Of a stretch of DNA of 64,000 nucleotides, positions 1-64,000 are shown piece by piece (the first letter of the stretch is position 1; the number at the start of each line of letters is the position of its first letter). The notes below the pieces were generated by a model, which made no database searches, was not told the DNA's origin, and worked only from the letters and a program-made list of their open reading frames with translations. Where the stretch lies: positions 32,001-96,000 of IMG/VR virus record IMGVR_UViG_3300028591_000106. One strand, 5' to 3'. The DNA is from a virus. Its lineage: Duplodnaviria > Caudoviricetes. Both the position numbers and the translations under genes were made by a program.

Positions 1-3000
1 GCTGAAGCTCTTGAATTGACAACGGATACCATGAAACTTGCAACTATTGCAGGTAATGATTATTCAACTGCAACTTAGGAAATGACTGCCGCACTCCGTG
101 GTTTCAAAATGGAAATGGACGAAGGTAGCCATGTTTCTGATGTCTATTCTGAACTTGCTGCTCATGCAGCCGCATCTGTTGATGATATCGCACAAGCTAT
201 GTCAAGAACTGCATCTATTGCTAATTCTGCAGGTATGAGCTTTGAAAATACATCTGCATTCTTAACATAGATGATTGAAACTACACAGGAATCTGCTGAG
301 AATATCGGTACTTCTATGAAGACTATCATTGCTAGATTTACTGAATTAAAAAAGAATATAGCTGGTACTGCAGATTCTGAATTTGATGATCTCAATTTTA
401 ATAAGGTTGACGAAGCATTAAAATCTGTTGGAGTTGCTTTAAAAGACACTACTGGACAATTTAGAAATCTTGATGATGTTTTCCTTGAACTAAGTGGTAA
501 ATGGGCTTCTCTTGATCGTAACACGCAAAGATATATAGCAACTGTTGCTGCAGGTTCTCGTCAGCAGTCTCGTTTTATTGCTATGATGGACAACTATGAT
601 AGAACAGTTGAACTTATTAATACGGTTGCTGATTCAGAAGGAAAAGCAGATGAATAGTTCGCAAAAGCTGCGGATACTGTTGATTTTAAATTAAATGCTA
701 TCAGAACAAAATGGGAAGAATTTAAACTTTCTATTATGGATTCAAGTTTTGTTAAAAGTCTTTTAGATAGAGCTAATTCTTTAATGGATGGAATAAAAAA
801 TGTTAAAATGCCTTAGCTCGCAATAGGGTTGACTATCGCTGCTCCGGTAATAAAGCGTTTTGTTTTAACATTGATTAATTCTATTAAAAATAGTGCAAAA
901 CAATGGCAATCTTTAGGTTCTAATATAACTAATTTTATTGGAAAAGGAATTAAAAAACATCCAGTAAAATTAATGGCTCAATTAGAAATGGATAAAAATA
1001 AGTATAAAGAGCTTGAAGAAAAGAAAAAATAGCTAGAACAAAGTATTGCTTCTCATCCAATAAAAATATCTGCAAATGTAGATGAAAATTCATTAGAAAA
1101 ATTGAATGAAAGATTGACTGAATTAAAAACAAAATTCGGCGATTCTGAAATGACGGCAGAATAGTGGAGCGAAGAGCTTAAAGGTTGCGGTATTGCTACA
1201 GAAGATTTAGTTCCTATGTTAGAGAGACTAGCGCAAGGAGAAAAGCTCACTAATGAGCAAATAGCAGGATCTATTAGAAGTTTACAAGAATAGGAAAGTG
1301 CATTAAAAACTACTGATACCACAATGCAAGAAACTTCTACTAAGATATAGACGGCTTAGACAAAAATAAATGGATTAAGAAATGGTGTTGCAACTGTCGG
1401 TGCAGCTTTTACAGTTTTTGCTACATCATTATTTAGTGGTGTCGGAGCAGTAGAGAGTTTTTCTGCAGCAAACTCAATGTTAATAGCATCTTTAGCAAGC
1501 TTAGCTTTTCAAGCAATTCCGCAAGTAGTTGCAGCAGTTAAGATTGGAGGAGCTGAAACAAAAGCTGCTTTAGCATCTACTGGCATTGGAGCTGCGATTG
1601 TTGCAGCAGGTCTATTAATAGGAGTAATTGGTAAGGCTATTGCAAAAGCTAAACAACATTAGAAAGAGATGACAACAGAATATAAACTTTAGCAATAGTT
1701 AAATAAAATTTCAAATTTACAATAGTCAACCAGTTAGGCAAAAAGTGATTTATAGAATGCTAAAGACGAATTAAAGACAACAGAAGAGAAGTTAGATAGA
1801 TTCAAAGAATTGTCTGAAATGCAGGTAAAAACAACTGAAGAGCAAGAAGAATACAATAATTTAGTTGCAGAAATCAGATCTGAATACCCTTCAATTGTTT
1901 AGTATTATAACAGTATTACTGGAGAACTAACTATTCAAGAAACAAAAACTAAAAATATATTAGATATGTAGAGATAGCTTGTAGTTGAACAACAAAAAAG
2001 CTATGCTATGGCGTAGAATAATTTATATGATGCTAATATAAGAAAAGCACAATTAGAATCTATGCAAAAATTAGAAAAGTATGGAGAACTTTCATCATTA
2101 ACAACAACTAAAAAGAAAGATAAGTATGCAAGCTATAGGGGAGATGTTAGTGATGCTAGAAACACTCCTTCCAACTTTATAAAAGAATCTATTTTCTCTG
2201 GCGGAATTGCAAATGCAAAAAATGCAGGTTTAAGTTCTGAAAAAGCAATTGAATATAATTTAAATAGATATGGTATAGATAAAAATACATTTTTGAAATA
2301 GGCTGGATATAATACCACTTTGACAGATGAATAGTGGGATGATTTGGCTTCTAGTTTAATAAACAATTCGAATGAAATTTATAAAACTATTGAGGAAACA
2401 ACCAAAAAATCTATTAAGGCTATTGAAGATGAACGAGATAGTGCTATTTAGTATTATAAAGATATGAAAGCCGCCTCTATTAAATAGACATTATTAACTG
2501 AATTTGAGAATCTTGGAGAAGCAAGTGCAGATGCAATTTCAAAAGGAGCTTTAGATAATGTTTATTAGGTAATGGCGAAAGAAGCGACTTCTGACTATAT
2601 TGGACAGATGTCTACAGGATTTGTTAATGATCGTTATAATTATATAGAAGGAGGCCAAAACATAGGCAATCTCTTTGGACCTTTAGGTAGTATCATAGGT
2701 ACAGGAGTTGGCGCCTGGATTGGTTTAGCTAAGGAAGATAATCTTGCTGCTTGGGAAGACCTCGATAGTGATATTTAGAATATTTGGAAAGAAGTAGGAA
2801 AACAAAATGGTCATGAAGATGTTGTTGCTTGGTATGAAGAAATTAGATATGATGATGAAGATTATCAAAAATATCTTGAAGACTTTGCAAGTGTTGCAGA
2901 GACCTATTTTTCAGAAAAAATTGCAGAAGATATAGCAACAGCATTAGAAAGTAATCCAAAATTGGCTTAGACATTTGAAGATTTTAGTTCTAAACTTGCA

Positions 3001-6000
3001 ACAGGCGATTTAAATGAACAATAGCGCCATGATTAGTTTATAGCTACTCAAAATGCAATTAAAGAAGCTGGATTAGATCCTGAAACTGAACAGTCCCTTC
3101 TTAGATCTTTATATAATGAAAATAATTAGTATAAAAATAAGTTAGAGTAGCAAAAAAACTCTGTAAGAGGGCTATTTGGTAATGATGATGATGCTAATAA
3201 CTATCTTGAAAATTTAAGCGGAAAAGAATTAACTCAAATAAGTGATGCTGTCAATAAAATTATTGAATCTGCGGGAGAAGAGGCTGGACAGAAATATCTT
3301 AATAAATTATCTGACATGATGAAAGATTAGGGCCCAGAAATGACAGCTTAGTTAGCATTAATGCTTGATTTTTCTGAAGCAAATGATTATAATTGGGAAG
3401 ATTTTAAAGAAAAAGGTATTCAATCTATTATAGACACAGCAAAGGTAAGTAAGGACGAAGCTACTTCTATGTTTAATGAATTAGCTGATGCAGCATCTAA
3501 AGCTGGAATTTTAAATAAGCTTATGAGTATCGGAGATGTTAATTCTTTACAGGAGCAAATAGCCGGTAGAGAAGAAGCATTAATGAAGCATAAAGATATC
3601 GTAGAAAAAATCATGGGAACAGATAAGCCATTAAAATTAACATAGCAGGAAATTAAAAAATTATAGAAAGCCGTTTCAGACTTAGGAGACCAAGGCGTTA
3701 AATTAGATTTATCTAAATATTTAAAGGGAGATACTTTAAATGCTTAGGCTTTTAATGATGCTTTAACGACAGGCTTATTATTCTCAATACAAGACATTGA
3801 AACTGCCATTAAAAATCTAAAAGCTGCTGGTGGAGAAGATAATCTAGCTGTTGCCGAATAGCTAGGAGAAGTCTTGAATTTAGCTAAAGCTTTTAACATT
3901 AATGCAAAAGAAACATTCGAAAATTGGGATGATTTAGATAGAGTTATTAATGATGCTGCAAATAGTTTAGATAAAGTTGATAAAGTTATGAATCAATTTA
4001 TTTCTGATGGTTATGTTAATGCAGAGAGCATAGAAATCATAAGTGGGCTGCTTGAAGATCAAAATGATCTATATAAGTATGTTGATAACAATCTTGCTCT
4101 TAATGTTGAAGGACTTAAAGAATTAATTCATACCGAGATAGAAGATATTAAAGTTAAATATGCTCATGGAGAAGCTACAGCATATTAGCTACTTAAATTA
4201 GCAGCTCTTGAAAAATAGCTTTCTAATACAGAAAAAGAATGGAATACTTAGTCAAAAGATTTAGAAGATAAACATAAGAAAGCTATGGAAGATTATGCTA
4301 AGGCATAGGAAGATGTAACAGAAAAACAAAAGGCTCTTAATGAAGCTATTGCAGAATACAATAAACTTCTTTATGGTTCAGAAAATCGTCAATCTGGACT
4401 TGATCTTCTTTATAACTATAAAGAAGCAATATCTGCATTTTCTGATGAAATGGCTCGTGCATAGGAGCTTATTGAAGATTCTAAATCAGTAGATGATTCT
4501 GTTGCCGCGTTATCTCGTTATACTAATGCTGCTCATCAGAGACTCGCATATATGAATGCTTAGAATGAGCGCTATGATGCAGGACTTGCTGCTCGTAGGA
4601 ATCAGCTGCTTAGTGGAGCTACTTCTTATACTAATGAACTAACTGGAAATACAACAACAATTAACTTTGGTGATTATGTAAAATACAATGCAGATACCGG
4701 TTTGATTGCACTTGATTAGAAACTTATTCAAGATGCAAAAATTGCAGACGAATGGAAAGACTATATTGAAAAACAGGTTGATGATTATAATAAGCTTAGT
4801 ATGGAAAGCTTAAAGAATCAAGATGAAATTAGAAAACTCGAAAAAGAAATTTAGAAGCGTAGAGAAGATGCTATTAAGAAATATGCAGATTTTGAGAAAG
4901 ACATTGCAGAAACACTTAAAGAGGCTTATCAGAAACAAGTTGATGATTTAAAGGATAGATACGACTCTATGAAGGAAGCCGATGATGACTATCTTGATGC
5001 TCTTTAGGAAGCTATTGAAAAATAGAGAAAACTTAGAGAGCGTGAAAACAAATGGGAAGATTTAGCATAGAAGTAGAAAAAATTATCCCTTATGTAGAGA
5101 GACACCTCTGGAGCCAATGCTCTTGAAAATCAAAGACTTCAGAAAGAAATTGAAAAAGACCAAGAAGCTATGCTTGATGAGTCTATTGATTCAGCTATTG
5201 AAAATATGCAAAAACTTGCTGAAAAGTAGGATGAACTTAGATAGACAGAAGTTGAACTTAAGGAAGCTCTTCTTGATAATACCATGTATTGGAATCAACA
5301 AGCTGAAGGAGTTGCTCAAGGTTTCGAAACGGCTAAAGATTATGTTGAATGGTTTAAAAATACAGCAGTAGGATTAAATGAACAAACAGCGGCATAGTTT
5401 GAAAATACTATGAATGAAGCTCGAAATAAATTTGGGGAAGCTTCTGAAGAAATTGCTTGGCGTATCCAAGATGATATGACTTAGACGGGAGATGCAGTTG
5501 CTGAAACTATTGATGTTACAGCTGATGAAATTAAGAATATCGTCGCTACTACATCTGATACTTTTGTAGATGAGGTTAGCAACACTTTTGAGAGAACGAA
5601 ACGATCATTTAATGAAAATATGGATTCAGCAATCGAAAAAGTTCATAGTGCTCAAACTGCTTTACAAGAAGCTATTAATAAACTTAATGAAGCATCTGCT
5701 GCAGCAAAAGCAGCTTCTGAAGAAATTGCAAGACTTGAATATTAGATGTAGCATTAGCCACAAACTTCTTCTACATCTACGACAGATGCTGAAAATTATG
5801 GTATGACTGGTACATATGAAGCTCAAAAAGGTATTGCTGCCAATTTGGCTAATAATCTAACAAAATCTACAATAGACCAGTATATGTAGACATATGATTA
5901 GAGCATTATGAGTGGCGCAGTTTCAACTGCATTACATGATAATAAAAATATGTCATGGGATAATGCAAATAGAGCTGCTGATTATGCGACTGGTAGTGGA

Positions 6001-6504
6001 GGATATTCTTATTATACAGAACCTTGGGATAATAATACAGTATAGACTTTAAAAGATATTGGATTATGGGTAGCATCTTTAGGAAATTCATTACTTTTTG
6101 GTGATAAAGATTATTCTTCTTAGGCTTATTCAGCATATATGACATCAACTTATGGATAGGGTAAAGATAAAATTAAGCAATATTTAACTGGCGGACTTGT
6201 AAATTATACGGGTCCAGCTTGGGTTGATGGAACTTCTGATCGTCCTGAAGCATTCTTGTCTTCTGAAGATACAGAGCGTATTGGTAATGCAGCTAAACTT
6301 CTTTCTGATATTCCTGCTCTTACTCGTTCTAATATTTCAACTTCTAACTAGACTTATGGTGATACAAATATTGAAATTAACCTCAATATTGATCATATTT
6401 CTTCCGATGTCGATGTCGATGAAATGCTCGAAAGAGTTAAGCAAGAAATTGTTGATGTAGCTCGTCCTATTGGCACGAATGTTATTTTACAACAACAGGT
6501 TTAA
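1..6504 (+). CDS. Tape measure protein (5'-partial, >2160 aa), TAG=Gln readthrough
   Basis: ORF fragments at 82, 271, 829, 1477, 2062, 2572, 3361 and 3874 share one frame and are separated by TAG; first TAA is at 6502-6504. TP901-type TMP core (ESAENIGTSMKTIIARF, VAAGSRQQSRFIAMM), long coiled-coil, C-terminal GGLVNYTGPAWVDG..PE motif. Confidence 0.9.
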
Positions 6505-6559: not shown

Positions 6560-7294
6560 ATGGCATTTATTCCTAGATTCACAAAACCAGAAGCCGGCAA
6601 TAAATATTATATTACTAAAGCCAAGGGCGGCTGGTCTACAGCAATTGTTGGTAATCCAACAGATCCTGATTGTAATGTTCTTCATAATTGCGTTGGATAC
6701 GCTTTTGGAAGATTTAATGAAATCATTGGCGATACAAAGATGACACATTTACAGCCAATTAACGCAGAAAACTTTTATGCCGTCGCTTAGTCACAAGGTC
6801 TTAAAACTGGACAAGAGCCTTAGCTTGGCGCTGTTATGGTTTGGCAAAAAGGACCAACCCTAAGCTATACAGATGGAGCAGGTCATGTCGCGGTAGTAGA
6901 ACAGATTAACGATGATGGCTCTATAATTACATCAGAGTCTGGATATGGCTGCGCATCAGCTTTCTGGACTTAGACTCGTAAAAAGGGTAACGGTAACTGG
7001 GGCGCAAATAGTAGTTATAAGTTTTTAGGTTTTATCTATTTGCCTGATGGTTCAGAAGTTAAGCCTACTCCACAACCAGTAATCCCTTCTCGTGTAATCA
7101 AAAAGGGAATGCATGGTGAAGATGTTAAACAAATGCAGACCAAGTTAGCAGCTAATGGATATCTTAGACAGACTGAAATTGACGGCGACTTTGGTAAGAT
7201 TACTCTTGGAGCGCTTCTTGCTTTCTAGCTTGAAAATGGACTTGAAGTTGATGGTCATTGCGGACCTGCAACAAAGAAAGCCTTGGGTATTTAA
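6560..7294 (+). CDS. CHAP-domain peptidoglycan hydrolase with C-terminal PG_binding_1 domain
   Basis: NCVGYAFGRF (catalytic Cys) and GHVAVVE (His); C-terminal KKGMHGEDVKQMQ..L...GY...IDGDFG..T..A..F(TAG=Q)..NGLEVDG; GAGGTG SD; in-frame TAGs; ends TAA. Confidence 0.88.
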
Positions 7295-7372: not shown

Positions 7373-7401
7373 TTGACTTCGTTTCTGGATTATGGTATAA
7401 T
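7373..7401 (+). promoter_or_regulatory. sigmaA-type promoter (extended -10)
   Basis: TTGACT-17 nt-TATAAT with TGG before the -10. Confidence 0.75.
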
Positions 7402-7420
7402 AAAGAAAAAATGGGGTGAT

Positions 7421-10400
7421 ATGATGCAGCCAATAGATTTTCGAGGTTTTCGTTTTGGCAATGTGCATTCTAGTGATTTACAGCTAGAAGTTGTAAGTAC
7501 ATCCAATAGATATGAAGCTCGAACACTTCCTGCCCCTACTGATACGGTACAGGATGTGCCGGGCAGCGACGGACAGTATTATTTTGGTTCTGTCTTTAAG
7601 AATCGAGAAATTACTGTTAATGTGGCTTTTGATAATGTATCTGAATAGATTTATAGAAAAATCAGATAGCTGTTTGCAACAGATAAGCTACAAGATTTAG
7701 TTTTCGATGAAGAACCCTATAAGACTTGGAAAGCTAAATTGAAAGCAAAACCTGAATTTAAATCTTTGTGCTTTAAAGACGATGACGGGAATAGAATTTA
7801 TAAAGGCGACGGCAAATTATAGTTTATCTGTTATTTCCCTTATGCTTTTGGTTTTGATAAATATATTGTTAAAGCCGCAGATTACTATATGCTAAATACG
7901 CCAGAATAGATTCTTTGTGAGTTGTCCAATGATGAAGATAATTTTTATTTCGCTTCTCGCAGCTTGCCAGCTCCAGCATGGATTCCACAGGATTTGCGTT
8001 ACCATTATAATGTCAATCCTAAAGATGGGATGTATCAAGATATACAGGGCATAAGAGGTCCTTATATTGAAAGACCTAAAGACTATCAAAATAAAGGTGA
8101 TAGATATTGGGATCCAAATGATGGACTTTCTTGGAAGACTGGCTTCCCTACTATTGAGTAGGTATAGAACGGAGAGCTTTATTTTGATTTAAATGGAGAT
8201 ACTAAAACTTTAATTACAACTAGAGGATATTGGGATAATATTCCAGATTGGCAATCTACAGCAAAGTTATTGACAACACCAACATTGGATTACGAATAGG
8301 GGCTTATGTATATGCCGCAATACTCTAAGACAAACTATGTTAATATGGAGGTCGGCTTTGACAGTAGCCGTCCATTGATTGGTACAAGATTACTAGTATA
8401 TAATCCTGGCGACCTTCCAATTGATTGGTAGTTAAAAATCAATGAAAATAAACGAAGTTTCTGGTCTGGTCGCGGCAGCGAGAAATTCCGTATCAGAAGA
8501 TTTAATGTCGAAAGACTTTCTATTCCTGAAGCTGTTGATTGGTGTATGATGACTCCATATTATCAGAGAGATAAAGATGTCTTTAAATATGGTAATAAAT
8601 ATTTTAGAAGAAAGAAGTTTGATGTTGGAAAAATAATTGATGAAATTTACAAGGCAGAACAGAATGGCAGCCCTCTTGAGTTTACTGATGGTAATGGAAA
8701 TCTATTATCAACAGATGATTTAGTTTATATGATTCAACATGGATGCTTCCCTGCAGACAAAACTTGGGGGATCGAAGTTACTATCAACTTTAAATGTAGG
8801 AATAAAAATACTGGTAAAGAATTTCCAGTAGTGTACCAAAGTTTAATGGCAGAACTTCCAATAGATCTTATTAACAAAATTAAAAGTTATAGATTATATG
8901 AAAATGTTCAATGGAATGAAAATGAGTTATCTCCTACAGATTTAGAAGCCTGCTAGGTAAAAGATTTCACCAGATCTGAAGGAATAAAAGTTGCATATTA
9001 TTTAGGTTTTCCTCCTGATGAAGAGTGGGCTTAGTAGCACTATTATAATGAAAAAACTCATTATTATATTCAAGATCCTTATGAAGTAGTGTCTTTATTT
9101 ATTGGACTATTGCCAGATAGCAATCGTATGGATTATGACTATGATTATGAAAAATTTGATAGTGATCCAATTACTATAAAAGATGATGAGGCTCTTCGCA
9201 AGGCTAGCGAGTCAGGAGCAGTTACAGAATATCGTCCAAAGTCTCCAAGAGTTGCTTATAATCTTCATTTAGATAATCCTCGTTCTGGCGGACGCTTATT
9301 TAACAATAACAATCAAAATGACATCTTCGTTTATGAAGAGCTAGGAGACGCTCATCCCAAATATTGCTATTATGCAGAGCCAATTCCAAGACAGAAATTA
9401 GGAGAATATATCCGACTGTTCTATTGGCAAACAAAGCAATTATCTGAAGGAGAAATTGTTTATAATGATGTAAAGCTCAGAGAATTTGCAGACTGGGTTA
9501 ATAAAAACTTCTATATGTCTAATAAGATTAACTATGAAAAAGGAATTAAGCTAGCAGATAGATATGAAGAAGTCTTTAAATAGTGCATTGATGAAAAAGA
9601 AGAATTTGAACTATATTGGGATACATTAAAACAGTTATTCCAAGACTTTATCCCTATTTCAGAGGATGCTAGCTGGCAAGAATTATTCTATGACTATGTT
9701 AATGCACCGCTAGAATATGTTCCCACAGATTCAAGAGACTTGGACTATGGACAGGAAATATTTAATGCTTTTAAATATCCAGCTTGGATGACACCAGACT
9801 ATTTAGAGATAGATTCAAGTAAATTAGGCGCAATTCCTCTTATAACAGAATATATGAAAGCTATTAACTTAGATGAAAAGAGTTTGTTTACCGGTAAGAA
9901 GGTTTATTATGATAGCTCTTTACTTTCTGCCGCAAAATATTAGTAGTTAAGACTGAAACTTAATAAACTGCTTAATGACGGAGATTGTATCAACGACTTG
10001 ATTGATGATTGTTATTACATCAATAGTGATACAAGAATGCTTTATGCACTTGAAGAACCAAAAGGTTCTGAATTCAATTATAAGCCAAATAAAGTAGTAA
10101 TGAATGAAGCTATTACTAAAGGAAAATGGTTTAAACTCCCTCCTGGATGGTCACTTATTACTATTGAGCCTGTTATGGATGAAGACTTATATGGCGGAAA
10201 GCGTTGGGTTGATGCTCGTCCATTTGATTGGGGCTATGGCGGCGATATGAATAACAATGCAAAAGAAGTAGAACAGCTATTTGAATTGATCTATGATTTT
10301 GCAGATACAACATTTAGGACATTAAAATATCAAGAAATGAATGTTGCAATTCCAGAAGAAGATAGAGAAACCTACTGGGAGACTCCTTTTAACAAATGGT

Positions 10401-10774
10401 ATGAAAATAAAATTGATGGTAATGAAAATCAATTTATGGTTGAATATTATTATCATAAGCGTTCTCGTGCCGAATAGGAATTCTTATCTATTATTGATGA
10501 CTACTGGAACATGGTTGCTCCTTATTATACTTGGACTTCACGAAAAGGAGTATATCAGTAGGCAGATAAAGAGACGGCGGCAAAAGATGGCGTACTTTAT
10601 CTTGATCAGAAATTTGATGTAAACGGAGTTCCAATTCATAGTATTACAAATCATATTTCTGATTGGTGGTGGTATGCTTGTAACTATTTGTGGGGTAATT
10701 TCCCTCCTATTTACTGGACTGCCGCTGATATGTTAAACAATATGAAAATTGAGTATACACCATTATTCTATTAA
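7421..10774 (+). CDS. Distal tail (Dit)-like protein with large insertions (~1117 aa)
   Basis: N-terminus GFRFGNVHSSDL...DVPGSDGQYYFGS...REITVNVAFD...LVFDEEPYK is typical of siphophage Dit. Fragments 7373, 7922, 8546, 9089, 9740 and 9998 are in one frame, joined by TAG. Lies downstream of the TMP. Confidence 0.75.
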
Positions 10775-37884: not shown

Positions 37885-37905
37885 TTTATCACTCCTTATA
37901 ATAAT

Positions 37906-37934: not shown

Positions 37935-37937
37935 ATG

Positions 37938-46189: not shown

Positions 46190-46192
46190 TCT

Positions 46193-46441: not shown

Positions 46442-46473
46442 TAGCCTTCTCTCCTTTCTAACTTTCTATTTAT

Positions 46474-46502
46474 ATCATATCATAAAAAATAAAAAAAGTC
46501 AA
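46474..46502 (-). promoter_or_regulatory. sigmaA-type promoter
   Basis: TTGACT-17-TATGAT with TG extension; terminator hairpin (about 46508-46534) just upstream. Confidence 0.65.
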
Positions 46503-46537
46503 AAATTTAAGGGGTAGAAACTAATCTACCCCTTTTA

Positions 46538-46933: not shown

Positions 46934-46937
46934 CTTC

Positions 46938-48268: not shown

Positions 48269-48292
48269 CGCTTTCACCTCACAATAAAAAAA

Positions 48293-48322
48293 TAAGAGGA
48301 ATAGAAAACTATCCCTCTTAAT
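48293..48322 (-). terminator. Terminator after the ligase
   Basis: TAAGAGG.ATAG/CTAT.CCTCTTA stem with an A-tract on the plus strand. Confidence 0.65.
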
Positions 48323-48357
48323 TTAATGTATTTTATTGTATAGGTTTATCTAAGGTT

Positions 48358-49494
48358 TTAATTAGCAATTTGATCGTATAGACAATCCTCGGCTCTCTTG
48401 TCATCTCTCCAAGTCTTGATAATACCGTGGCGAAGACTGAAGCCACCATCAATATGCTCGGTCATCATTCCACTAAGCTCAGCGACCTTACCCTTCCACT
48501 TCTCAGGCTCAGTAACGATACCTTCTCGAAGAGCTTCTGTAATTCCCTGCATCCATGCGATTTTAACCGGAACGCCATCTTTTAAAACGGAGAAAGATAC
48601 AGAACCTGCCCATCCATAGAAGTAATATTTTGTAACAGGTTCAACAGGAACTCCATTGATATAGTCCTTAAACTGACTTGTGGAGTACTTCTGACCAGTC
48701 TTTGTATTCTCCCAGTAAGGCCATGTCGCAAGCAGCTCAGGAGTCTTAGCTGAATGAACTCTTGTTGCGGGCGCATAATCGCCATCAAGAAAAGCGTCGA
48801 TCGTTTCTTCGAGCTCTCTCTTCATTTTAAGAGTCATCCAAGCTGTGCGCTTGCCGGGAAGATATTTGCAATCCTTACGAGTGATAACGATTCCTTCTCC
48901 GCCGGCGGCAATAACAGAGCCGAAAAGATCCCAAAGTTCAGGACCTTCAAGATACTCTGCGATTGAAGTATGTTCATTCTTAAGAACATCAAGCAGCTCA
49001 TAGTTAAGATACTTTTCAATTCTTTCCTCGAACTTAATATCAATCAGAGACTTTCCCTTATATGCAAGAACATCAAAAACATAAAAATGAAGCCATCCGT
49101 TAGTCTTCTGTCGTTCGATGCACTTGTCTTTCAGACAGCCAAGAACAGAAGTAACTTTACGGCTGCCCTCATTGTTCGGGAAGTAGATTTCTCCTACCAA
49201 AACAGTGCCATTTGGTACACAAGAAAGCTCTTCACAAATATGAGGAATCCATTCTGCCTTATCAGCAAATTCACCACTAACACCTGCATCACGACTTCTA
49301 AGATGAATTTGTCCATCCATGTCTTTAATAATCATGCTCCAGAAGCCATCCATTTTGCGGCTTCCAAGATAGTTATGAGATGTAGCAAGTTCTTTTGCTT
49401 TTGCGGTTCGATTACCTTTAAAACTTGAAGTAAAGCTATAATATTTCATAGCTTTCATATTCCAAAAATCATAGTTATCAATCAAAATCTCCAT
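48358..49494 (-). CDS. ATP-dependent DNA ligase
   Basis: RKMDG (motif I), LVGEIY, VFDVL, EGIVI, LKMK, WRDDK; no TAG. Confidence 0.9.
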   Translation of the reverse strand: MEILIDNYDFWNMKAMKYYSFTSSFKGNRTAKAKELATSHNYLGSRKMDGFWSMIIKDMDGQIHLRSRDAGVSGEFADKAEWIPHICEELSCVPNGTVLVGEIYFPNNEGSRKVTSVLGCLKDKCIERQKTNGWLHFYVFDVLAYKGKSLIDIKFEERIEKYLNYELLDVLKNEHTSIAEYLEGPELWDLFGSVIAAGGEGIVITRKDCKYLPGKRTAWMTLKMKRELEETIDAFLDGDYAPATRVHSAKTPELLATWPYWENTKTGQKYSTSQFKDYINGVPVEPVTKYYFYGWAGSVSFSVLKDGVPVKIAWMQGITEALREGIVTEPEKWKGKVAELSGMMTEHIDGGFSLRHGIIKTWRDDKRAEDCLYDQIAN

Positions 49495-52320: not shown

Positions 52321-54843
52321 ATGGAAGGATTCTTTAATCCGTTCGTCGGCGGAGCTGGCGGTGGCGGCGGCGGTGGAGTCGGACCACAAGGCCCCAAGGG
52401 CGATAAAGGTGATAAAGGTGATAAAGGTGATAAAGGTGATACTGGTAATGGTATTGCTTCTATCGTTCGTACAGGTAGCGAGGGCAATCTCGATTCCTAT
52501 GTAATTAATTTTACTAACGGCAGTACATTTTCTTTCACCGTAACTAATGGTTTAGATGGAGCGACTGGTGCGACAGGACCAAAAGGTGACAAGGGTGATA
52601 AGGGAGACACTGGTGAACAAGGCCCTAAAGGAGATACCGGTGAACAAGGTATCCAAGGTATCTAGGGAGAACAGGGTGTCCCAGGTGTAAATGGAAGCAA
52701 CGGTGCCGATGGTGTCGATGGTGTTTCAGTTACTGGAGCCTCTATTGATGCTCAAGGACACTTAATCTTAACTCTTAGTAGGGGCGCGGCAATTGATGCC
52801 GGTCTTGCAAAGGGTGAAGATGGTACTTCTATTACTATTTTAGGTAGCTTTAATGATTCTTCTAGTCTTCCTTCTTCAGGAAATACTAAAGGAGATTGCT
52901 ACTTAATTGATGGAGACCTTTGGGTTTATACCAATAGTTCAAAAACTGGATCTGTTAATGGATTTGAAAATGTTGGTCGTATTCAAGGTCCTGCCGGTAG
53001 AGGTATTTCTGCAGTTGCAATTAGAGATGGAAATCTCTATGTTACTTTTACTGATGACTTAGCAAATCCAGTTTACATCGGTCCAGTAAAAGGAGAAAAA
53101 GGTGACACTGGTGAGACCGGTCCACAAGGTATTCAAGGTATTCAAGGTATTCAGGGTGAGCAAGGTCCTCAAGGAGAGTAGGGTATTCAGGGTATTAAGG
53201 GTGATACTGGTGTTGGTATTACTTCAATTACAAAAACTTCTACCTCTGGATTGACTGATACTTATACTATTACCTATAGTGACAATACATCAACTACCTT
53301 TACAGTAACTAATGGTGCCAAGGGTAATGCTGGTGAGCAGGGCGAAACAGGTAATGGAATTGTTTCTATCTTGAAAACGGGAACATCTGAACTCGTTGAC
53401 ACCTATACAATTACCTATACGAATGGTGGCACAGATACTTTTACAGTAACTAATGGAGCTAATGGAGCTAATGGAGCTAATGGCGCTGATGGTGCAAAAG
53501 GCGATAAAGGTGATAAGGGTGACAAGGGTGATACTGGTAATGGTATTGCTTCTATTACTAAAACTGGAACCTCTGGACTTGTTGATACTTATACTATTAC
53601 TTATACAGATAATACTACAAAAACATTTACAGTTAAGAACGGTGTTTCTGTTACTGCTGCTTCTATTGTAAATGACGAACTTATCTTAACTCTTAGCGAA
53701 GGAAATCCAATTAATGTAGGAAAAGTAATTTTGAGAAGCACTCAAATTTCTTTTGTATTAAGTTCATCTAATTGGACTCGTCTTTAGGATGGATCTTATC
53801 AATATGTTTATAGCAATAATAATATTAAAGCAGACAGTTTTGTTGATGTCGGTCCAGCTCTTGGTATCACTTAGGACCAGCTCAATGCTTTGCTTGGTAC
53901 TAAATTAACCGTTGCTAGCCTTGCTAATGGCAGCATAACTCTTGTTGCTTACGGCGAAGCTCCAAATATTGATATTCCTATGCTTCTTGTTATTGAAGGT
54001 AGTTATCAGGAAGTTACTCCTGTTATCACTGTTGATGATACTTTAAGCAAAGTTTCTACCAATCCAATTCAAAACTAGGCAGTAGCTAATAAGTTTGAAG
54101 AGCAAGACAATAAAATTGATTCTCTTATGGAGACAAAAAGCAACAATTTACTTACTTTCAATACTGTTACTGCAGGTTCAGGTTATACAGCAATAAAGCG
54201 TTCAGATGGTTCACTTGCTATTTCTGCAGACGGTACTTAGAGAGGTAGCACTGGAACTGTTACACTTACAAGTGACACAGTTTTGCCGCCTGGAGACTAT
54301 GTATTCTCAGGTTGTAAAGGAGGCTCTTCTTCTACATACTATATGAATCTTCGTAAAAAGGGTGGCGCTGTTATTGCTGTTAGTTTTGACGATCCTACGC
54401 CTTTTACCTTGGCTGAATCTACTGAAGTTTCTTTGGAAGTTGTCGCTGTTGGTGGCGTGACTATGACAGATAGATTATTCTATCCGATGATTGTTAGCGC
54501 GCTAGTTGATAATCCAACCTTTGATCGAGAAGATGCTGCAAGCCATCCTATCGTAGTAGTAGGTCATGATAAAGTAGATGTTGTTTTTGGTCGTAAGGAT
54601 TATTATTTAGTTTAGGTTACTGTATTGAGTAGAAATACTCCTGGCTAGGTCATTAAATTCGCTTATTATTGGGTAGAAAGAAACAGTGGAGTAGATCGTG
54701 CTACAGTAATTTTTGACACTACAAGTGGACCAGAAGGGGCTCCAACATTCAGCAAATATTATGATGAAAATGGCACTCCTTGCGTTAGAATTTCAGATAC
54801 TTATAATAACAGAGATATTGTTGCAACTGTTATCGGATATTAA
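52321..54843 (+). CDS. Collagen-like tail fibre / virion appendage protein (840 aa)
   Basis: Gly-X-Y runs interleaved with repeated GNGIASITKTGTSGLVDTYTITYT modules; TVDDTLSKVSTNPIQN motif; fragments joined by TAG. Confidence 0.85.
52400..52440 (+). repeat. 9-bp tandem repeat (GATAAAGGT)n encoding GDK collagen triplets
   Basis: Seen directly; similar arrays near 53125-53155 (CAAGGTATT), 53452-53487 (AATGGAGCT) and 53500-53535. Confidence 0.85.
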
Positions 54844-55900: not shown

Positions 55901-56161
55901 ATGAAGAAAAATATTCCTGCAACCCCACAATATTTGGACTTTCTTAAAGAAGCTGAAAGTATTGATGATTTAGGAATATGGCTAGGCGGCGCAACGGTCA
56001 CTGGTACTTATGAGTTTAAAGTTGGTGAAGATGAACCTGTTCTTTTAACAGGTGAAGATACTACCAATTTTGTAGCTCCTGACCTTGCAGCGGCAGAAAA
56101 CGAGAAATTTAAGTTTCTTCGTACTAGCGATCATAAATTTTTATGTTAGAAGGAGGAATGA
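55901..56161 (+). CDS. Hypothetical protein
   Basis: TAG at 56147 read through to TGA 56159-56161. Confidence 0.6.
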
Positions 56162-56163
56162 TA

Positions 56164-59100
56164 ATGGCAGAACCAAGAGAATTTTATTTTCCTCTCCAAG
56201 ATAAAGCTGCTGATATTGATAGAGTTCTCCATGATTTAGTTGGAATTACAGATGCCGAAAATAGCATTGGTATGTATGTAAAAGTTATTGAACAAGAAGG
56301 AAAACCTCATTTCTGGTTTGGAGAGGGCGGCGAGAAATAGAAACCTATTGAAGTTGATAGTAGAGAGGTTCCAGTTGGAGACGGATAGGAATGGGTTGAG
56401 CCATCTGAATGGTATGCATAGGTTGGATTAAGCGAATATCGTATTGAAGATCATCCCGGAGTTGGTTATGTCTTAAAAAATGTTAATTCAAAACCTTAGT
56501 GTAAAATATGGGGCGGTTTTAAATAGGATGGCGTAATACATTATTTTACTTAGGAAGAATATGAAGAGTATTTCTTGTCATATAGTAACGCTTAGTATAA
56601 ATATGCTAATATTCGTCCTTTAACGGATGAATAGATAAATGCAATTAAATCTCTTGTTTAGAATCCAGATTTTTTTGATTAGTTTAATATTACTCATTAC
56701 TGTGGACCTGCTAATTTTAATTTTACTACTGCATATAGTGTAAGTGGTGTGGAATATGTAAACTTTCTTGAAGAAGATGGAATATTGAAACTTTAGCTTA
56801 CATCTTTAGCAGTAAATTCAAAATGGGATTCTTCAACTTAGACATATATTTATACTTTAGTTTCAACATTAGAAAGTTTTAATAGCCAAATTTTATTGGA
56901 ATTTTCATCAGATAAAGATCTTGTACTTAATTTTGATTGTGAAACTAAAGTAACTGGTGGTGGTTCTCTTTTAGAGTATATAGATACTGTCACAACAGAG
57001 ATAGAAATTCATAGAGAAGATTTTTATATTGATGAAACCAGATATTTTGGTTCTGAATTTACTTAGAATCCTTATTATGCTTCTTAGCTTGTCTTTGGTA
57101 ATGATCCAAAAGGTAATTTAGGTTTTAATAATAGTTGCAATTTAACTTTAAGAGGAAAGGCAAAAATTATTGGAGATGACTCCTCTTGGGCTCATTTCGC
57201 TCATAATTCAAAGATTGAGCTATACGATAATTCTTCCATTATAGGTAAAGAAAATGGATTGTTGATTATTGGCGGAAATGCATCTGCGTTAATCGGCTAG
57301 AGAGGAATGAGTAGTAACTACAAAGGAAAACGCCATTTAATATCCAAACACTCTTCTGCTCCAAATCTTCTAATTGGAGAATATGCTTGGATTGATGCAG
57401 AAGGAACCGGATATCTAAGTATAAAAGACGATTGCGATTTATTTATGGAAGATCATGCATGGTTTGCAATGTCAGGAGAATCAAGGGTAAGTTTAGATGG
57501 CTATTCTAGACTTCATATGTCAGCCGGCTCACCATATGCTAAAAGAAATCCTTGCAGCAACCAGGTCGTAGCAGATGATCATAGATTCATTTTTTAGAGT
57601 CTTTTTGAACAAGCAGATAATGAACATATAAGAAGTGGAGATATAAGTTCTCCTACGATTTTCGAAGTAGGAAGCCAGTATGATCCTGTAATGAAGCATT
57701 ATCGTTCTTAGGCAGATGTTCCATATATCTCATAGGCACATAAGTATGTTTCAGAATCTGAATATATGTCAACATTTAAGACAGATTTAGATAATAGTAT
57801 TGTTTTCATAAGTGTCTTAAGGGATTATTGGTATAGTGATCTAGATCCATTAAATAATCAGTTACAGGCATTACTTCCTGATTATAGTATTAAAAGGTAT
57901 TATTTATTTAGTGACTAGAATGCTCTTGATAGAGTGTTAAATTTCTTAGATGAAAACCCTTCATATAAAGAGTAGTTAACCGATTTTATTGAAAGATAGC
58001 ATCCTTATTTTACTGAAGAAGAGTTTAATTTATTTGAGAGTTTTTCTTCAAGTCCTTATTTTAATTATTCTTCAGTAAAGTCTTTAAATCCGATAGCAGT
58101 AAAACAAGATCCTTCTTTTGTCAATACCATTAAGTAGCTTAATTCATTTCCATTCTTTGATATTGAATATAAAATGGAAGGATAGTATGTATATACAGCC
58201 TTGTATCTTTTTTCACAAGAGCCGGATAAAAGTGATTTTAACTATATTTTAGATAAAGATATGTTTGATCCTAAATTAGTTCGTTATAACTACGATCATA
58301 AAACTTCTTATTCTCGTTATAGCATGGACAATTATTTTGACAGTGAATAGTATTATTGTGTTGTTACTCCATATGATCCAACAGTTGCAAGTAGCGGTTG
58401 CTATATTCTTCCTTCTCTTGCAGAATAGACGAGAGGAAAACTTATATCTGATGGAGGCTCATTAAATGAAAGAAAAGTAGGTACGACTTTCTTATTTGGT
58501 GGTCCAGATACTACTGCGATAATTGAAGGCTATGGAAAAACAAATATTCGAATAGGTGGAGATCCTTAGTCTTTCATAGGTCTTGATATTACTTCTGGAG
58601 ATAATTCTGTTACTAATTTTAAAATCGGTGCTAATGAATGGGGAGAAGTAAACTATTTCTTGACAGGTAATGATCTATTTATTGAATATAGCGATTAGGC
58701 TCATATTGAAGTTCATGACAACTCTAATTTTATTTTAAGTGGCAGAAAACCAAGTACCGAGAAAGCCCTTAATGACTAGAATCTTGTATTAGGACATCAC
58801 GATGAATTGTGGACTGTTCCCAAAAAGAATAGAAGCAATACAAGTCCTACATTATAGCTATATCATGGTTCAAGTTTTTCCATGTATGGAGTACTTTTAA
58901 ACACAAGTCTAATGACTATTGCTACAGAGATACTGGGATAGATTCAAGTAGATACTATTACACTAGTGAATTTACAAAATTCTCAAAAAGAAGAAAATTA
59001 GAAGTATGTCAAGGGCGCATAGTTCTTATTAAATTATATTGATTATGATAATGAGCCTCACAATCGTACTGAAGATGTAGTTATTATTGATCGAGATACT

Positions 59101-60006
59101 CTTTTCTCTATATTAGATTTATATATGCTATTTAATAAGAATGATCGTGGGAGCAAGCATCTTGAAACTATGGTTAGAGATGTTATTGAATTTACTGAAA
59201 CTCCTTAGGATTATACTAATCCATCTGAATATCTACCTTCAGGAGCACAAACAGCAGTTTTTACAGTGACATAGGCAAGAAAATATAGTGATTATCAATA
59301 TAATTGGATATTTTATTTCAAGGTTCAAAATTGTTTAAGTGGTATTAACGATACTTATAGAATGAACAAAGTTCCTTATAATCCTTTGTGTGAAATTGCT
59401 GATAATTCTGAATTTAGAATGTGGGGCAATACTAAGTTTATGATTAAAGATACTGGTATTACTCTTAAAGATAGCTCTGTAAATGATGATTATACCTTTA
59501 CTGTTAATGAATTATAGTCTGCTATTAATGGCGGCGGAGCTTCTAGTGCAAGTCAAGTTAGTTATGATAATACAACATCTGGTTTAATCGCGACAGATGT
59601 ACAAGGCGCAATTGATGAACTTGCAGCAGGAAGTGGAAGTGGTGGCACTTCTGTTTATAAAGAAGAAGTTCTTTGGGATTCAACCACTTCTACTGACACC
59701 TAGGGTCAATATACTTTATCTAAACCTTTTACAGATTTTGATGCAATTTGTTTCAAAGTTAATTGGAGTAATAGTAATGGTAATTATAGATTTGTAAAAA
59801 TACTACCGGTTTCTATTTTTACAGAAGAAATTGGTACTCTTTCTCGAATTGCAGTAGCAACTGGAGATGTCCAATACCTATATGTTCAAGTGTCTAATGA
59901 TAGTAAATTTGTTAGACAAGATACTGTTAATGGTATGTTAATGAGTAAAATTATTGGTATAAAATATGGTACTTCAGTCGCTTCTCTTAATGGCGTTGGT
60001 TTTTGA
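56164..60006 (+). CDS. Large tail fibre / receptor-binding protein (~1280 aa)
   Basis: Single frame closed only by TAGs in the stretches checked; beta-helix-like segments; ASQVSYDNTTSGLIATDVQGAIDEL fibre motif; almost invisible in the ORF track. Confidence 0.72.
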
Positions 60007-60814: not shown

Positions 60815-60841
60815 TTTATATATCATAAGGAGTTGAGAGAA

Positions 60842-61972
60842 ATGGAGTATGATTTTAACAAATACGCTACCTTTGGTTCAGATGGCGGCGGAGAATTTTA
60901 TGGTAAAAATTCTCCACAAAATATTGGCTATACTGATGGCATTCCCTATCCAGAGCCAAACTGGGAGCCTTTTGAAACTGCAACTTCTTCAGTTTCAACA
61001 TTAAAAAAAAATGAAAAAATTTTAGGCATGACCTATGGTTACTTTGCCAATCGTGGAGAAATTACATCAGCTAGTGGACTTAAATCACAACAGGCGATGT
61101 TTAATCTTGGAATTAACTGGACTTGTTTAACGGTAGTAAATTATCAAGAAACATATCACTCAACTCGAATTTATGCAGATCATCTAAGAACTCCTTCTGA
61201 CTATGATATAGAGCAATTCATTTCCAACGCTCATAACCGCAATATTAAAGTTTGTTTAAAACCGATGATTCATTCAGAAGATAATGTCTGGCGTGCTCAT
61301 ATTGGCTTTCCAGATTTAAACATGGATGATCTAAATGCGTATTGGTAGCCGTGGTTTGAGTCTTACAAAAACTTTATTCTTCGCTATGCCGAATTGGCTT
61401 AGCGTTGCGGCGTAGAAATGTTGTGTATTGGATGCGAAATGCTAGGTACAGAACATCGTCGATATGATTGGGAATACATCATTAAAGAAGTTCGTAGAGT
61501 CTATCATGGTGCAGTAGTCTATAATACAAATCATGACCATGAAGATGCACAAGAGTGGTTTGATTGTCTTGACTATATTGGAACATCTGCGTACTTTCCA
61601 GTTGGTAGACCAGATAGCTCATATGCAACTATGCTAAAAAATTGGCAAGAGGTCCGTTATCGTCTTGATGCGATTGCAGAAAGCCGCGGCAAGAGATTTA
61701 TTTTTATGGAAGTAGGATGCCGCTCTGTTAAGGGAGCATCTCAACATCCTTGGGACTTCACTCAAGAATTGGAATATAGTGAATGTGAACAGGAAGATTT
61801 TTATCGCTCTTGTATGAATATATTCTATGATGATCCTTACTTTGCTGGCGTATTCTGGTGGGATTGGCCTACTAATCTTCCTAAGAAAAAAGATAAAGAA
61901 TTTTATATTTATTAGAAACAAACAGAGCGTTATTTGACTGATTTCAATAAGACTAAATTGTTAAAGAAATAA
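60842..61972 (+). CDS. Glycoside hydrolase family 113 (beta-mannanase-like TIM barrel)
   Basis: GMTYG, VCLKPM, WRAHI, WFESY, CIGCEM (acid/base Glu), SAYFP, FMEVGC (nucleophile Glu), GVFWWDW; three TAGs. Confidence 0.82.
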
Positions 61973-61991
61973 CGCCTCAAAATTACATTAA

Positions 61992-62028
61992 TAGAGAGAA
62001 GACTAATAACCTTCTCTCTATTTCTTTT
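61992..62028 (+). terminator. Rho-independent terminator
   Basis: TAGAGAGAAG/CTTCTCTCTA stem followed by TTTCTTTT. Confidence 0.75.
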
Positions 62029-62042
62029 ATGGAGGGATTTTA

Positions 62043-62225
62043 ATGCTAAAATTAACAGATGAGCAAAAGAAGGAAATCGTAAAAGCAAGATTCTATGGCT
62101 TCCTTCCTTATTAGATTGCCAATGTTATGGATATTACTTCGCCAGATGTTCTTCAAATCGTAAAAGAGAACGAAGACTATACTGCAGAATTGGAGGGAAG
62201 AAACTATGTAGATGAAGGGAATTGA
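62043..62225 (+). CDS. Small HTH-like protein overlapping the endolysin start
   Basis: LTDEQKKEIVKA..YG...Y(Q)IANVMDI; SD GGAGG; TAG at codon 24. Confidence 0.6.
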
Positions 62226-63297
62226 TGTTAGTGTATGGAATGGCACTATTGATTGGGCAAAAGCAAAAACAGACATTGACTTTGCAATTCTTCGTGCAGG
62301 CTATGGAAGATTAGTTTCTCAAAAAGATGGGTAGTTTGAAAATAATTACAAGGGATGCAAAGAAAATAACATTCCATTTGGCGTCTATTGGTATAACTAT
62401 GCAACAACAGTAGAAGATGCTAAAGAGGAAGCCGCAGCTTGTATTGAAGTTTTAAAGGGCAAGACTTTTGATATGCCGGTCTGGTATGACATTGAAGAAA
62501 ATAATGTCTTTGATACTGGCAAGGAAAATGTTTCTAAGATTGCAAAGGTCTTTTGTGAAGTTCTTAAGGCTGCAGGTTATAAGGTCGGTATCTATTCTTC
62601 TCTTTGCACATTCAAAGCATATTTTACAGAAGAAGTTAAAAATAAATATGATATCTGGCTTGCTCATGTAGGAGCTGGTGGTCAGCCACTTACAAAAACT
62701 TCCTATGACGGTCACAAAGAAATGTGGCAGTATTCTTGGAAGGGTGTAATTAGTGGTATTAAAGGAGATGTTGATACAGATTACTGCTATAAGGATTACA
62801 GCTCCGCCGCAGTACCTGAACCAGTAAAACCTACTACACCAATCGTTAAGCCTGCGAACGGCGGCGAAAAGATCGATGTTATTTATAGTGCTTATATTGG
62901 AAGATGGCTAGGAACCATTACTAACTATAACGATGTTAATACTAATGGTTATGCAGGTATTCCAAAGAGAGGGATCTCCGGTCTCGCTGCTAAAGCAACA
63001 AAAGGTATTTTAAGATATAGAGTCCATACTGTAAATGGACAGTGGCTTGGTTGGATTACTAATTTTAACTAGGCAAATTGGGCAACTGGTGTTGCAGGTA
63101 TTGCTGGTAGAAATATTGACGGTATCTAGGCTGAGCTTGTTGGTGTTCCCGGATATTAGGTTGAATATCGTGTTGGAACTTATAGAACTCCTGGTTATTT
63201 ATCTTGGATTCGTGGATACGGCGCCGGCTCTATGGGATATGCGGGAATCTATGGATAGACTATTGACAGAATTCAAATGAGAATTGTCAAAATTTAA
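62206..63297 (+). CDS. GH25 muramidase endolysin with C-terminal ChW-like cell-wall-binding region
   Basis: KGIDVSVWNG, FAILRAGYG, GVYWY, VWYDIE, MWQYS, VDTD; C-terminal YRVH...WLGW and AGI.G..ID repeats; starts ATG-TAG-ATG; six TAGs. Confidence 0.9.
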
Positions 63298-63627: not shown

Positions 63628-64000
63628 TGGCGGAAAACAGATCAACAGAACAGGAAAGGTTTGATGATTTTGTTACTAATCTTATTAAAACAACCGATGT
63701 TTCAGATTTTAATGGAGCCTTGCTTAAAGGATTGGAGAATTAGACACCTGATTTTTGGAGATATATGATTGATTATATGTATCATGAATATGAAGATTAG
63801 TATTTAGGTCATGCGCCCATTCAAGAAGATGACTTCCCCGGAACTCCATCATTTGTTGAATTTTTGAATCAGTATATTGATTTAGATAATGATACAAATA
63901 GAAAAACAAGTTGGTCTACAATTTGGCAACAAATTAAAACCAATGCAATTAAAGGGGATAATGAGGTATGGAATGAGTCATTAGCGAATATTATTAAAAC
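63627..64000 (+). CDS. Hypothetical protein (3'-partial)
   Basis: TAATG overlap with the holin; open to the window end with two TAGs. Confidence 0.6.

Follow-up and report, generated by a model that had tools for sequence, protein, structure and literature searches.

Predicted reading of TAG as glutamine in a ruminant-gut siphovirus, and uneven use of the recoded codon among its genes

Introduction

When most of the recognizable genes of a phage break off at TAG under the standard genetic code and resume in the same frame, is TAG a stop codon at all, and, if it is not, which amino acid does it specify, what decodes it, and why do some genes use it freely while others exclude it? These questions are raised by a 64,000-nt stretch of tailed-phage DNA (hereafter, the window) that makes up the central 64 kb, bases 32001-96000, of the IMG/VR record IMGVR_UViG_3300028591_000106. 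The record is a 146,596-bp contig (36.8% G+C) that lacks a terminal repeat and is 89% complete by CheckV; it is catalogued as viral and carries IMG/VR end classes. A first-pass annotation, made from the sequence without database searches, had proposed that TAG is reassigned to glutamine in this phage (genetic code 15), that its host is Clostridia-like, and that standard annotation would miss or fragment most of its genes. Phages that use code 15, carry suppressor tRNAs and have late genes rich in TAG have been published (bioRxiv 10.1101/2021.08.26.457843; PMC10607447), and peptide-level proof that TAG is read as glutamine exists for crAss-like phages (PMC9523058). Here, we report that TAG is a sense codon in this genome, that it is predicted by comparison with homologues to encode glutamine, that a phage-encoded tRNA of glutamine type is the candidate decoder, and that the share of glutamine codons written as TAG differs sharply among functional modules, with the capsid, scaffold and core replication genes free of it.

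Results

Treating TAG as a sense codon restores the coding structure of the window. Under code 11, open reading frames (ORFs) of at least 200 amino acids (aa) account for 30% of the window; a sense TAG raises this coverage to 85%, compared with 32% for a sense TGA and 42% for a sense TAA, making the gain specific to TAG. With a simple gene caller applied to the whole contig and stops restricted to TAA and TGA, 165 genes covering 94% of the contig were called, and every one of them can end in TAA (101 genes) or TGA (64). Genome-wide, same-strand neighbors meet at fifteen 4-nt junctions of ATGA type and seven 1-nt junctions of TAATG type, which agrees with the first-pass claim that genes regain such junctions once TAG is sense. 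Its expectation that standard annotation would fragment most genes is likewise borne out, as 103 of the 165 genes hold at least one TAG and 62 are TAG-free; among the 54 genes overlapping the window, 40 hold at least one, for a total of 302 in-frame TAGs. TAG (539 codons) stands alongside CAG (555) and CAA (636) as an in-frame codon of glutamine type across the genome, its distribution along genes is even (deciles, chi-square p = 0.45) with no pile-up at 3' ends, and conserved Pfam and PHROG families are intact only with TAG read-through. TAG is a sense codon in this phage.

For the identity of the inserted residue, TAG was masked as X in all column tests, because circularity had to be avoided. 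Five TAGs that the first-pass annotation had placed at family glutamines are in frame exactly where it put them, at 19440-19442 (ClpP, FMFHqGS, with the TAG in lowercase), 40890-40892 (TrxB, DFGqIS), 42478-42480 (NrdG, PVCqNS), 31914-31916 (PhoH, NPEqIC) and 7226-7228 (PG_binding_1, LAFqLE), and Pfam confirmed all five family names after read-through. The claim that these TAGs fall on family glutamines held for three of them: the masked codon lies opposite the conserved Q of H-Q in ClpP and of G-Q in TrxB in three of three structure alignments shown for each, and opposite the conserved Q of F-Q in PG_binding_1 in four of four. It went without confirmation for PhoH, which had no PDB match at a strict threshold of 1e-20 and whose TAG column is gapped against the homologue of the standard-code Enterococcus phage VRE9_1, and for NrdG, which had no PDB match at a threshold of 0.01. 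In the RuvC-like resolvase, by comparison, all five alignable TAG columns are Q in VRE9_1.

At less conserved TAG columns, the residues opposite TAG are assorted, and a Codetta-style likelihood test was therefore run, in which the alignments themselves supplied the empirical substitution profile of each residue. Among close comparators (13 relatives with portals 63-70% identical, of which only the non-TAG codons were scored; 69 columns), Q is favored over the next residue, Glu, by 97 nats and over Lys by 100, in 2000 of 2000 bootstraps. The residues found at those non-TAG codons (Q.50, E.11, K.11) have the same profile as those opposite true CAA and CAG codons (Q.48, E.11, K.08). The relatives' own codons opposite TAG are mostly TAG (20%), CAG (18%) and CAA (17%), which together make 55%, followed by GAA (7%) and AAA (6%). 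CAA differs from TAG by two mutations and CAG by one, yet the two are equally frequent there, and mutational proximity is therefore not the explanation; codons for Tyr, Trp, Leu and Ser, all single-mutation neighbors of TAG, are rare at these positions. Tabulated in this way, homologue residues at TAG columns are enriched for glutamine both in the motif columns and in the close-relative likelihood, and the comparison argues that TAG encodes glutamine, as in NCBI code 15.

The candidate decoder lies outside the window, which itself contains no tRNA. The contig as a whole has 11 tRNAs, ten of which are clustered at its right end (genome 144480-146170), and one of these, at genome 144941-145014, carries the anticodon CUA (tRNA-CUA); ARAGORN labels it "Pyl", which is a mere name for that anticodon. 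The suppressor that the recoding proposal had led one to look for in the rest of the genome is thus there, and it is of tRNA-Gln type: among the tRNAs of the phage and two relatives, its five nearest neighbors are all tRNA-Gln, and it matches the relatives' tRNA-Gln(CUG) at 85% and 82% identity, with an identical acceptor stem (U1-A72, A73 and an encoded CCA) and D arm. It departs from that tRNA in the anticodon, at paired positions of the anticodon stem, and at a few sites in the variable loop and T stem. U1-A72 is an identity element for bacterial glutaminyl-tRNA synthetase (GlnRS) and for the GatCAB amidotransferase. Gene order tells the same story, in that the relatives have two tandem tRNA-Gln(CUG) genes followed by tRNA-Trp, and this phage has tRNA-Gln(CUG), tRNA-CUA and tRNA-Trp. 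Judged by sequence and order, the tRNA-CUA is the orthologue of the relatives' tRNA-Gln(CUG), with its anticodon changed from CUG to CUA.

The relatives G004 and G003 encode 47-48 tRNAs, and the complete 186-kb genome of G004, with 48, includes two other, more diverged tRNA-CUA genes. Given that our contig ends inside the tRNA array, further suppressors are probable, and the missing ~11% of the genome probably holds more tRNAs and suppressors; going by the relatives, some 35 more tRNAs may be expected, two of them tRNA-CUA genes. The array also includes a tRNA-Phe with the unusual anticodon AAA (genome 144670-144745, by ARAGORN), of which G003 has one too. A release factor (PF00472) and GlnRS (PF00749), which the first-pass annotation had named alongside the tRNA, gave no match in the record, and searches of the same record for serine recombinases and tyrosine integrases also found none; as the record is 89% complete, the absence of release factor, GlnRS, recombinase and integrase is not proven. 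In an Rfam scan, genome 1-4000 matched no family.

The use of TAG is strongly uneven across modules (chi-square p = 6e-30). TAG makes up 36-45% of glutamine codons in the late blocks (packaging, tail, fiber and lysis), a share that falls to ~20% in the replication block and to ~15% among the small genes of the right arm; for plus- versus minus-strand genes of the window, the odds ratio is 3.7 (p = 4e-16). The genes for the DnaE polymerase, both gyrase subunits, RNase H, ligase, a UvrD-like helicase, the scaffold and the HK97-fold capsid protein are TAG-free, and for DnaE the absence of TAG among 35 glutamine codons has P = 2e-6 at the genome-wide TAG share. The exclusion extends to the relatives, in which TAG accounts for 0-2% of glutamine codons in the genes for the scaffold, the capsid and a 1,080-aa virion protein, all three of which use CAG almost exclusively, and for 15-51% in the remaining genes of the terminase-to-head region. 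At the other extreme stands a putative phage sigma factor (genome 4885-6129; nine TAGs; PHROG 5767, E 3e-20, no Pfam match), for which the TAG share in relatives is 0.51, higher than for any other aligned gene. If this sigma factor drives late transcription, its translation would need the suppressor tRNA.

Independent assemblies, including contigs from an RNA library, hold TAG rather than CAG, which speaks against the artefact that the first-pass annotation had flagged as one means of refuting its proposal. In contigs of the probable source sample (depth ~30), window positions 1-12000 are reproduced without a difference, including 87 of 87 in-frame TAGs. Contigs from the RNA library, which belongs to a separate study, cover 26 TAGs with no difference, and there is therefore no sign of editing to CAG. 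In bovine strains (~95% similar, from two studies), for which 40 of 864 variant sites were listed, TAG is replaced by CAG in 2 of the 10 listed changes at codon positions 1 and 2. One bovine strain (run X4) also has 230 nt of the tape measure gene (window 2548-2779) replaced by 206 unrelated letters, marking a variable segment.

Comparison with sequencing runs matched the phage to a sheep-gut metagenome, and it, or strains ~95% similar to it, recurs in other studies of sheep and bovine guts, one metatranscriptome library among them. Its nearest cultured relatives are Enterococcus phages VRE9 and EF1, Bacillus SPbeta, and Geobacillus virus E3, which are large standard-code siphoviruses of Bacillota that share its gene order. 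DnaE is 37-38% identical to the polymerases of VRE9/EF1 and SPbeta, the large terminase subunit (TerL) is 31-39% identical to those of these phages (39% for E3), and the portal (PHROG match E 4e-58) is ~25% identical. The phage's own clade consists of ~13 IMG/VR relatives with portals 63-70% identical. Across 76 IMG/VR loci of the portal family, 60 gain ORF coverage specifically when TAG is sense and 16 appear to use the standard code, the code state being scored by a simple threshold from ~20 kb around the portal (0.2 for the tree labels). On a quick portal tree, the nine closest relatives group with the phage in a single deep clade, in which all members are scored as recoded but L008, whose gain of 0.18 is just under the threshold. 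The sister clade mixes recoded and standard-code members, and well-supported branches of the tree require at least three changes of state.

Cultured relatives, together with the CHAP, PG_binding_1 and GH25 lysins and the NrdD/NrdG pair, point to anaerobic Bacillota as hosts, and we infer that the host is probably an anaerobic member of this phylum; a Clostridia-like host, as had been suggested in the first-pass annotation, is plausible. The three closest relatives found in bins of metagenome-assembled genomes (MAGs) are labeled Oscillospiraceae, Ruminococcus and Ca. Fimenecus (Oscillospirales), and others carry the labels Gastranaerophilales, Erysipelotrichaceae, Bacteroidetes and Mollicutes. 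As these labels conflict and the contigs are phage-sized, they give a weak host hint only; the contigs are probably free phage genomes that were binned by mistake. A search for prophage copies as host evidence turned up only these phage-sized contigs in conflicting MAG bins, which are unusable as proof.

The gene content identifies the record as that of a siphovirus-type tailed phage (Caudoviricetes) of the ruminant gut with an HK97-fold capsid. The phage nature of the sequence, assumed in the first-pass annotation, is substantiated by a terminase, a portal, an HK97-fold capsid protein, a 2,641-aa tape measure, a distal tail protein (Dit), a tail fiber and endolysins. The capsid assignment draws on a predicted structure of moderate quality (pLDDT 58) for a 419-aa protein. 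Every top fold match listed for this model is an HK97-fold capsid or an encapsulin, 341 matches reach E <= 0.001, and the protein is accordingly taken to be the putative HK97-fold major capsid protein. Two plus-strand late blocks flank a minus-strand replication block (window 17.6-51.7 kb, with genes that include the resolvase and the ligase). The first late block runs through an endolysin, the putative sigma factor, terminase, portal, scaffold, capsid, five paralogous virion proteins, tape measure, Dit and a 2,133-aa tail protein, and the one after the replication block carries a collagen-like fiber, large proteins without a known family, a GH113 hydrolase and a GH25 endolysin. The sign of the GC skew flips at ~17 kb and ~52 kb (window 16001-20000 and 48001-56000), which is where gene orientation switches between the plus-strand late blocks and the minus-strand replication block.

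Within the window, the plus-strand genes open with the tail tape measure (1..6504, the C-terminal 2,167 of its 2,641 aa; PHROG tape-measure families, best E 3.9e-47), which begins 1,421 nt before the window and holds 62 TAGs inside it and 79 overall. It is followed by a cell-wall hydrolase with CHAP and PG_binding_1 domains (6560..7294, four TAGs; Pfam E 4.7e-15 and 3.5e-15), a 1,133-aa Dit-like distal tail protein (7373..10774, 16 TAGs; Pfam Sipho_tail E 6e-12, PHROG Dit), and the large tail protein of 2,133 aa (10787..17188, 50 TAGs; PHROG tail protein E 1.6e-15). Beyond the replication block, the plus strand resumes with an 840-aa collagen-repeat tail fiber (52321..54843, eight TAGs; Pfam Collagen, PHROG tail fiber families), a 1,287-aa protein with 36 TAGs and no Pfam or PHROG match (56143..60006), and, within 60833..63297, a GH113 glycoside hydrolase (60833-61972, three TAGs; Pfam E 1.7e-94) and a GH25 endolysin (62206-63297, six TAGs; Pfam Glyco_hydro_25 E 5.8e-23, PHROG endolysin E 2.9e-45). 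In all, there are four cell-wall-degrading genes, namely the CHAP and PG_binding_1 hydrolase, GH113, and two endolysins of GH25 type (one at genome 3984-4844), and all contain TAGs.

The minus-strand block begins with the RuvC-like Holliday junction resolvase (17614..18336, eight TAGs; PHROG resolvase families), a dUTPase (18344..19231, one TAG; Pfam E 4.7e-28) and the ClpP-like protease (19185..19958, six TAGs; Pfam CLP_protease E 1.8e-29), continues with the 1,311-aa DnaE-type DNA polymerase III alpha subunit (21079..25014, zero TAGs; Pfam PHP, DNA_pol3_alpha, finger and HHH_6), a RecJ-like exonuclease (25910..27715, four TAGs; Pfam DHH and RecJ_OB) and a DnaB-like helicase (28788..30494, two TAGs; Pfam DnaB_C E 6.6e-7), and then encodes a PIN and PhoH-like ATPase (31314..32561, three TAGs, of which one is that at 31914-31916; Pfam PhoH E 1.5e-37, PIN_4 E 6e-17) and an AAA_24 or Sak4-like ATPase (32621..33586, three TAGs; Pfam AAA_24 E 2e-45). 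Further along lie the A (35476-37884) and B (37938-39830) subunits of a gyrase/topoisomerase IV-type enzyme (35476..39830), with zero TAGs and 16 glutamine codons each (Pfam DNA_topoisoIV E 1e-91; DNA_gyraseB and Toprim), a thioredoxin reductase-like flavoprotein (40059..41102, three TAGs; Pfam Pyr_redox_2, with thioredoxin reductases as best PDB matches, E 4.6e-44), and an anaerobic ribonucleotide reductase module (42094..45324) made up of an NrdG-like activase (42094-42597, two TAGs; Pfam Fer4_12 E 4.4e-7), two small ORFs and NrdD (43375-45324, three TAGs; Pfam NRDD E 5.5e-91). The block also carries (45680..49494) RNase H (45680-46189; Pfam E 7e-24) and an ATP-dependent DNA ligase (48358-49494; Pfam DNA_ligase_A_M E 1.3e-15), both with zero TAGs and with small genes between them.

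Two further features lie beyond the window. Five consecutive paralogous virion structural proteins of 1080, 773, 791, 448 and 330 aa (genome 17718-28226; PHROG 2729) are TAG-poor in the first two members and TAG-rich in the last three, and the first lacks TAG altogether in relatives. A 392-aa homologue of the adenylosuccinate synthetase PurA in the right arm (genome 119647-121996; Pfam E 2.4e-24, over the first two thirds of the profile only) adjoins a protein with AAA_33 kinase and HD domains; neither of the two genes holds a TAG, and their pairing recalls the PurZ/DatZ module for 2-aminoadenine (Z) genomes. PurZ identity was not established for this protein, as its PDB matches are only to ordinary PurA and are weak (best E 2.9e-13).

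Discussion

Taken as a whole, the results are best explained, and we hold this with high confidence, by TAG serving as an ordinary glutamine codon that is decoded by phage tRNA-CUA, with graded TAG use that reflects putative effects of timing and efficiency. In such a system, only TAA and TGA would be needed as terminators, and TAG would be decoded by at least one phage-encoded tRNA-CUA. Because the record encodes no GlnRS, a host enzyme would presumably charge this tRNA with glutamine, and because it encodes no release factor, the tRNA would compete with host RF1 at UAG. On entry, the host would read TAG as a stop, such that TAG-free genes, including those of the core replication enzymes, could be made at once; as the suppressor accumulated, full-length products of the TAG-rich tail, fiber and lysis genes would follow. 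A suppressor-timing model of this kind has been proposed for other recoded phages (bioRxiv 10.1101/2021.08.26.457843). Superimposed on timing, TAG may be kept out of the most abundantly made virion proteins; its absence from the capsid and scaffold genes is in keeping with a codon that is decoded weakly and selected out of genes under the heaviest translation. Both the timing and the efficiency effects are likely.

Several observations weigh against this account or parts of it. A few small genes have their sole TAG 2-6 codons before a TAA or TGA, and TAG could terminate there. The assignment of glutamine is drawn here from sequence comparison, and the standard code of the host is assumed by analogy with published precedent. 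The close relatives behind the strong likelihood test are themselves recoded (only their non-TAG codons were scored), and distant comparators (VRE9_1 and 15 standard-code IMG/VR loci; 152 TAG columns) put Q first but weakly, by 5.4 nats over N and in 58% of bootstraps. The sequencing runs used against artefacts were available as assembled contigs rather than raw reads, and contaminating DNA is a possible source of the RNA-library contigs. Finally, TAG is not excluded from the replication genes as a group (RecJ has four, PhoH three, NrdD three and DnaB two), and the major capsid protein, the product of a late gene, is without TAG, and a simple early/late switch therefore misfits some genes.

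Three other readings deserve consideration. That the TAGs are not decoded at all, being assembly or sequencing errors (C read as T), RNA-edited sites or marks of a decaying phage, has a negligible probability: our comparisons of assemblies, codons and relatives found no support for it, and it would have to accommodate the 87 of 87 TAGs reproduced at a depth of ~30, the same or 95%-similar strains in other studies, the 26 unedited sites in the RNA library, the coexistence of CAG (555) and TAG (539) within the same genes, the TAG-specific ORF-coverage gain shared by ~70 related contigs, and purifying selection for glutamine in the substitutions opposite TAG. Also very improbable, if less extremely so, is that TAG is sense but specifies another residue, whether Glu (through a non-discriminating GluRS without amidation), Tyr, Lys, Trp, Leu, Ser or pyrrolysine. 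The name "tRNA-Pyl" given by ARAGORN to the CUA anticodon, the rank of E and K as next commonest opposite TAG, and the weak separation of Q from N by distant comparators could be cited in its favor; they are opposed by the lead of Q over E (97 nats) and K (100 nats) in 2000 of 2000 bootstraps, the parity of CAA with CAG opposite TAG and the rarity of Tyr, Trp, Leu and Ser codons there, the invariant Q motif columns that hold TAG, and the derivation of the tRNA-CUA from tRNA-Gln.

The more serious challenge accepts glutamine and dispenses with timing. It holds that TAG was captured neutrally in an AT-rich genome that had dropped it as a terminator, and that the gradient records translation efficiency, with poorly decoded TAG purged from highly expressed and essential genes. 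We regard this as a real contender that is nonetheless more doubtful than probable. It draws strength from the clade-wide absence of TAG from abundant virion proteins (scaffold, capsid and the 1,080-aa protein), which use CAG almost exclusively, from the presence of some TAGs in replication genes, from the failure to find a code-switch module with a release factor or synthetase, and from the interleaving of recoded and standard-code lineages on the portal tree, which implies that the code state changes readily. It is less at ease with the sharp split of TAG share by functional module, rather than by single abundant genes alone, with the fact that lysis and tail genes, whose premature expression would be costly, are the TAG-richest, and with published surveys in which recoded clades unrelated to this one show the bias too (bioRxiv 10.1101/2021.08.26.457843).

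A more adventurous extension of the reading of TAG as a phage-decoded glutamine codon is that the suppressor has been caught at birth, one tandem copy of tRNA-Gln(CUG), which remains CUG in relatives that already possess two older tRNA-CUA genes, having turned into tRNA-CUA in a lineage that would be actively expanding its suppressor capacity. Seen together with the lack of TAG in capsid, scaffold, polymerase and gyrase genes across the clade, and with its peak share, among the aligned genes, in a putative late sigma factor, this could make TAG a translational throttle, tunable gene by gene, instead of a simple early/late switch, and one that possibly gates late transcription. We consider this idea unlikely as it stands and offer it as speculation.

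These results bear on how such genomes are handled. Annotation under code 11 would break most genes of this phage and its ~70 relatives (the tape measure alone has 79 TAGs), and broken annotation distorts protein databases, completeness estimates and host prediction. The phage adds a ruminant-gut lineage, probably infecting Bacillota, to those that use code 15; it offers a clear case of a suppressor tRNA derived from tRNA-Gln(CUG) through an anticodon change, and the avoidance of the recoded codon by its abundant virion proteins bears on the question of timing versus decoding efficiency. Our understanding of the recoding phenomenon itself is unchanged. The points most worth keeping are that the suppressor originated from a tRNA-Gln(CUG) and that, across the clade, the capsid, scaffold and core replication genes exclude TAG.

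The recoding of TAG to glutamine in phages is an established phenomenon; this lineage itself is not described in the code 15 papers cited here. Like the crAss-like, Lak and "gemstone" clades (bioRxiv 10.1101/2021.08.26.457843), the phage has in-frame TAG at glutamine positions, a phage suppressor tRNA-CUA and an animal-gut habitat, and it shares with them TAG-denser structural and lysis genes, variable TAG use in replication genes, and close standard-code relatives. It differs from them in belonging to a large siphovirus lineage with a DnaE polymerase and kinship to phages of Bacillota, and, in its accessory genes, in that no RF2 or synthetase was found in this 89%-complete record. The avoidance of TAG in capsid and scaffold genes appears not to be described in that preprint, given that the terms "capsid" and "highly expressed" are absent from its text.

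In architecture, the phage resembles the standard-code Enterococcus phages VRE9 and EF1, SPbeta and Geobacillus virus E3, in which genes for the sigma factor, PhoH, terminase, portal and capsid, then for a long tape measure and the tail, are followed on the opposite strand by dUTPase, DnaE, RecJ, DnaB and Sak4, and which carry a tRNA set. They differ in their standard code and are separated from it by identities of 25-39%; in VRE9_1, moreover, gyrase, ClpP and TrxB are not annotated, and all are present here. Among recoded phages, a useful comparison is phAss-1 (of the proposed Phassvirus group; OQ749652), a ~136-kb siphovirus of gut viromes with a tape measure of >3,000 aa and a predicted Clostridia host (PMC10607447). 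Both are siphoviruses that encode a DnaE-type polymerase and a tape measure of great length, read TAG as glutamine, and carry a suppressor tRNA but no synthetase of their own. Their portals, however, are 28% identical, and phAss-1 is absent among the 20 best polymerase matches listed, whereas phAss-1 and two genomes assigned to its genus are reported to share 82.7% and 86.4% nucleotide identity (PMC10607447). These identities place the phage outside the phAss-1 genus, in a separate clade of related architecture.

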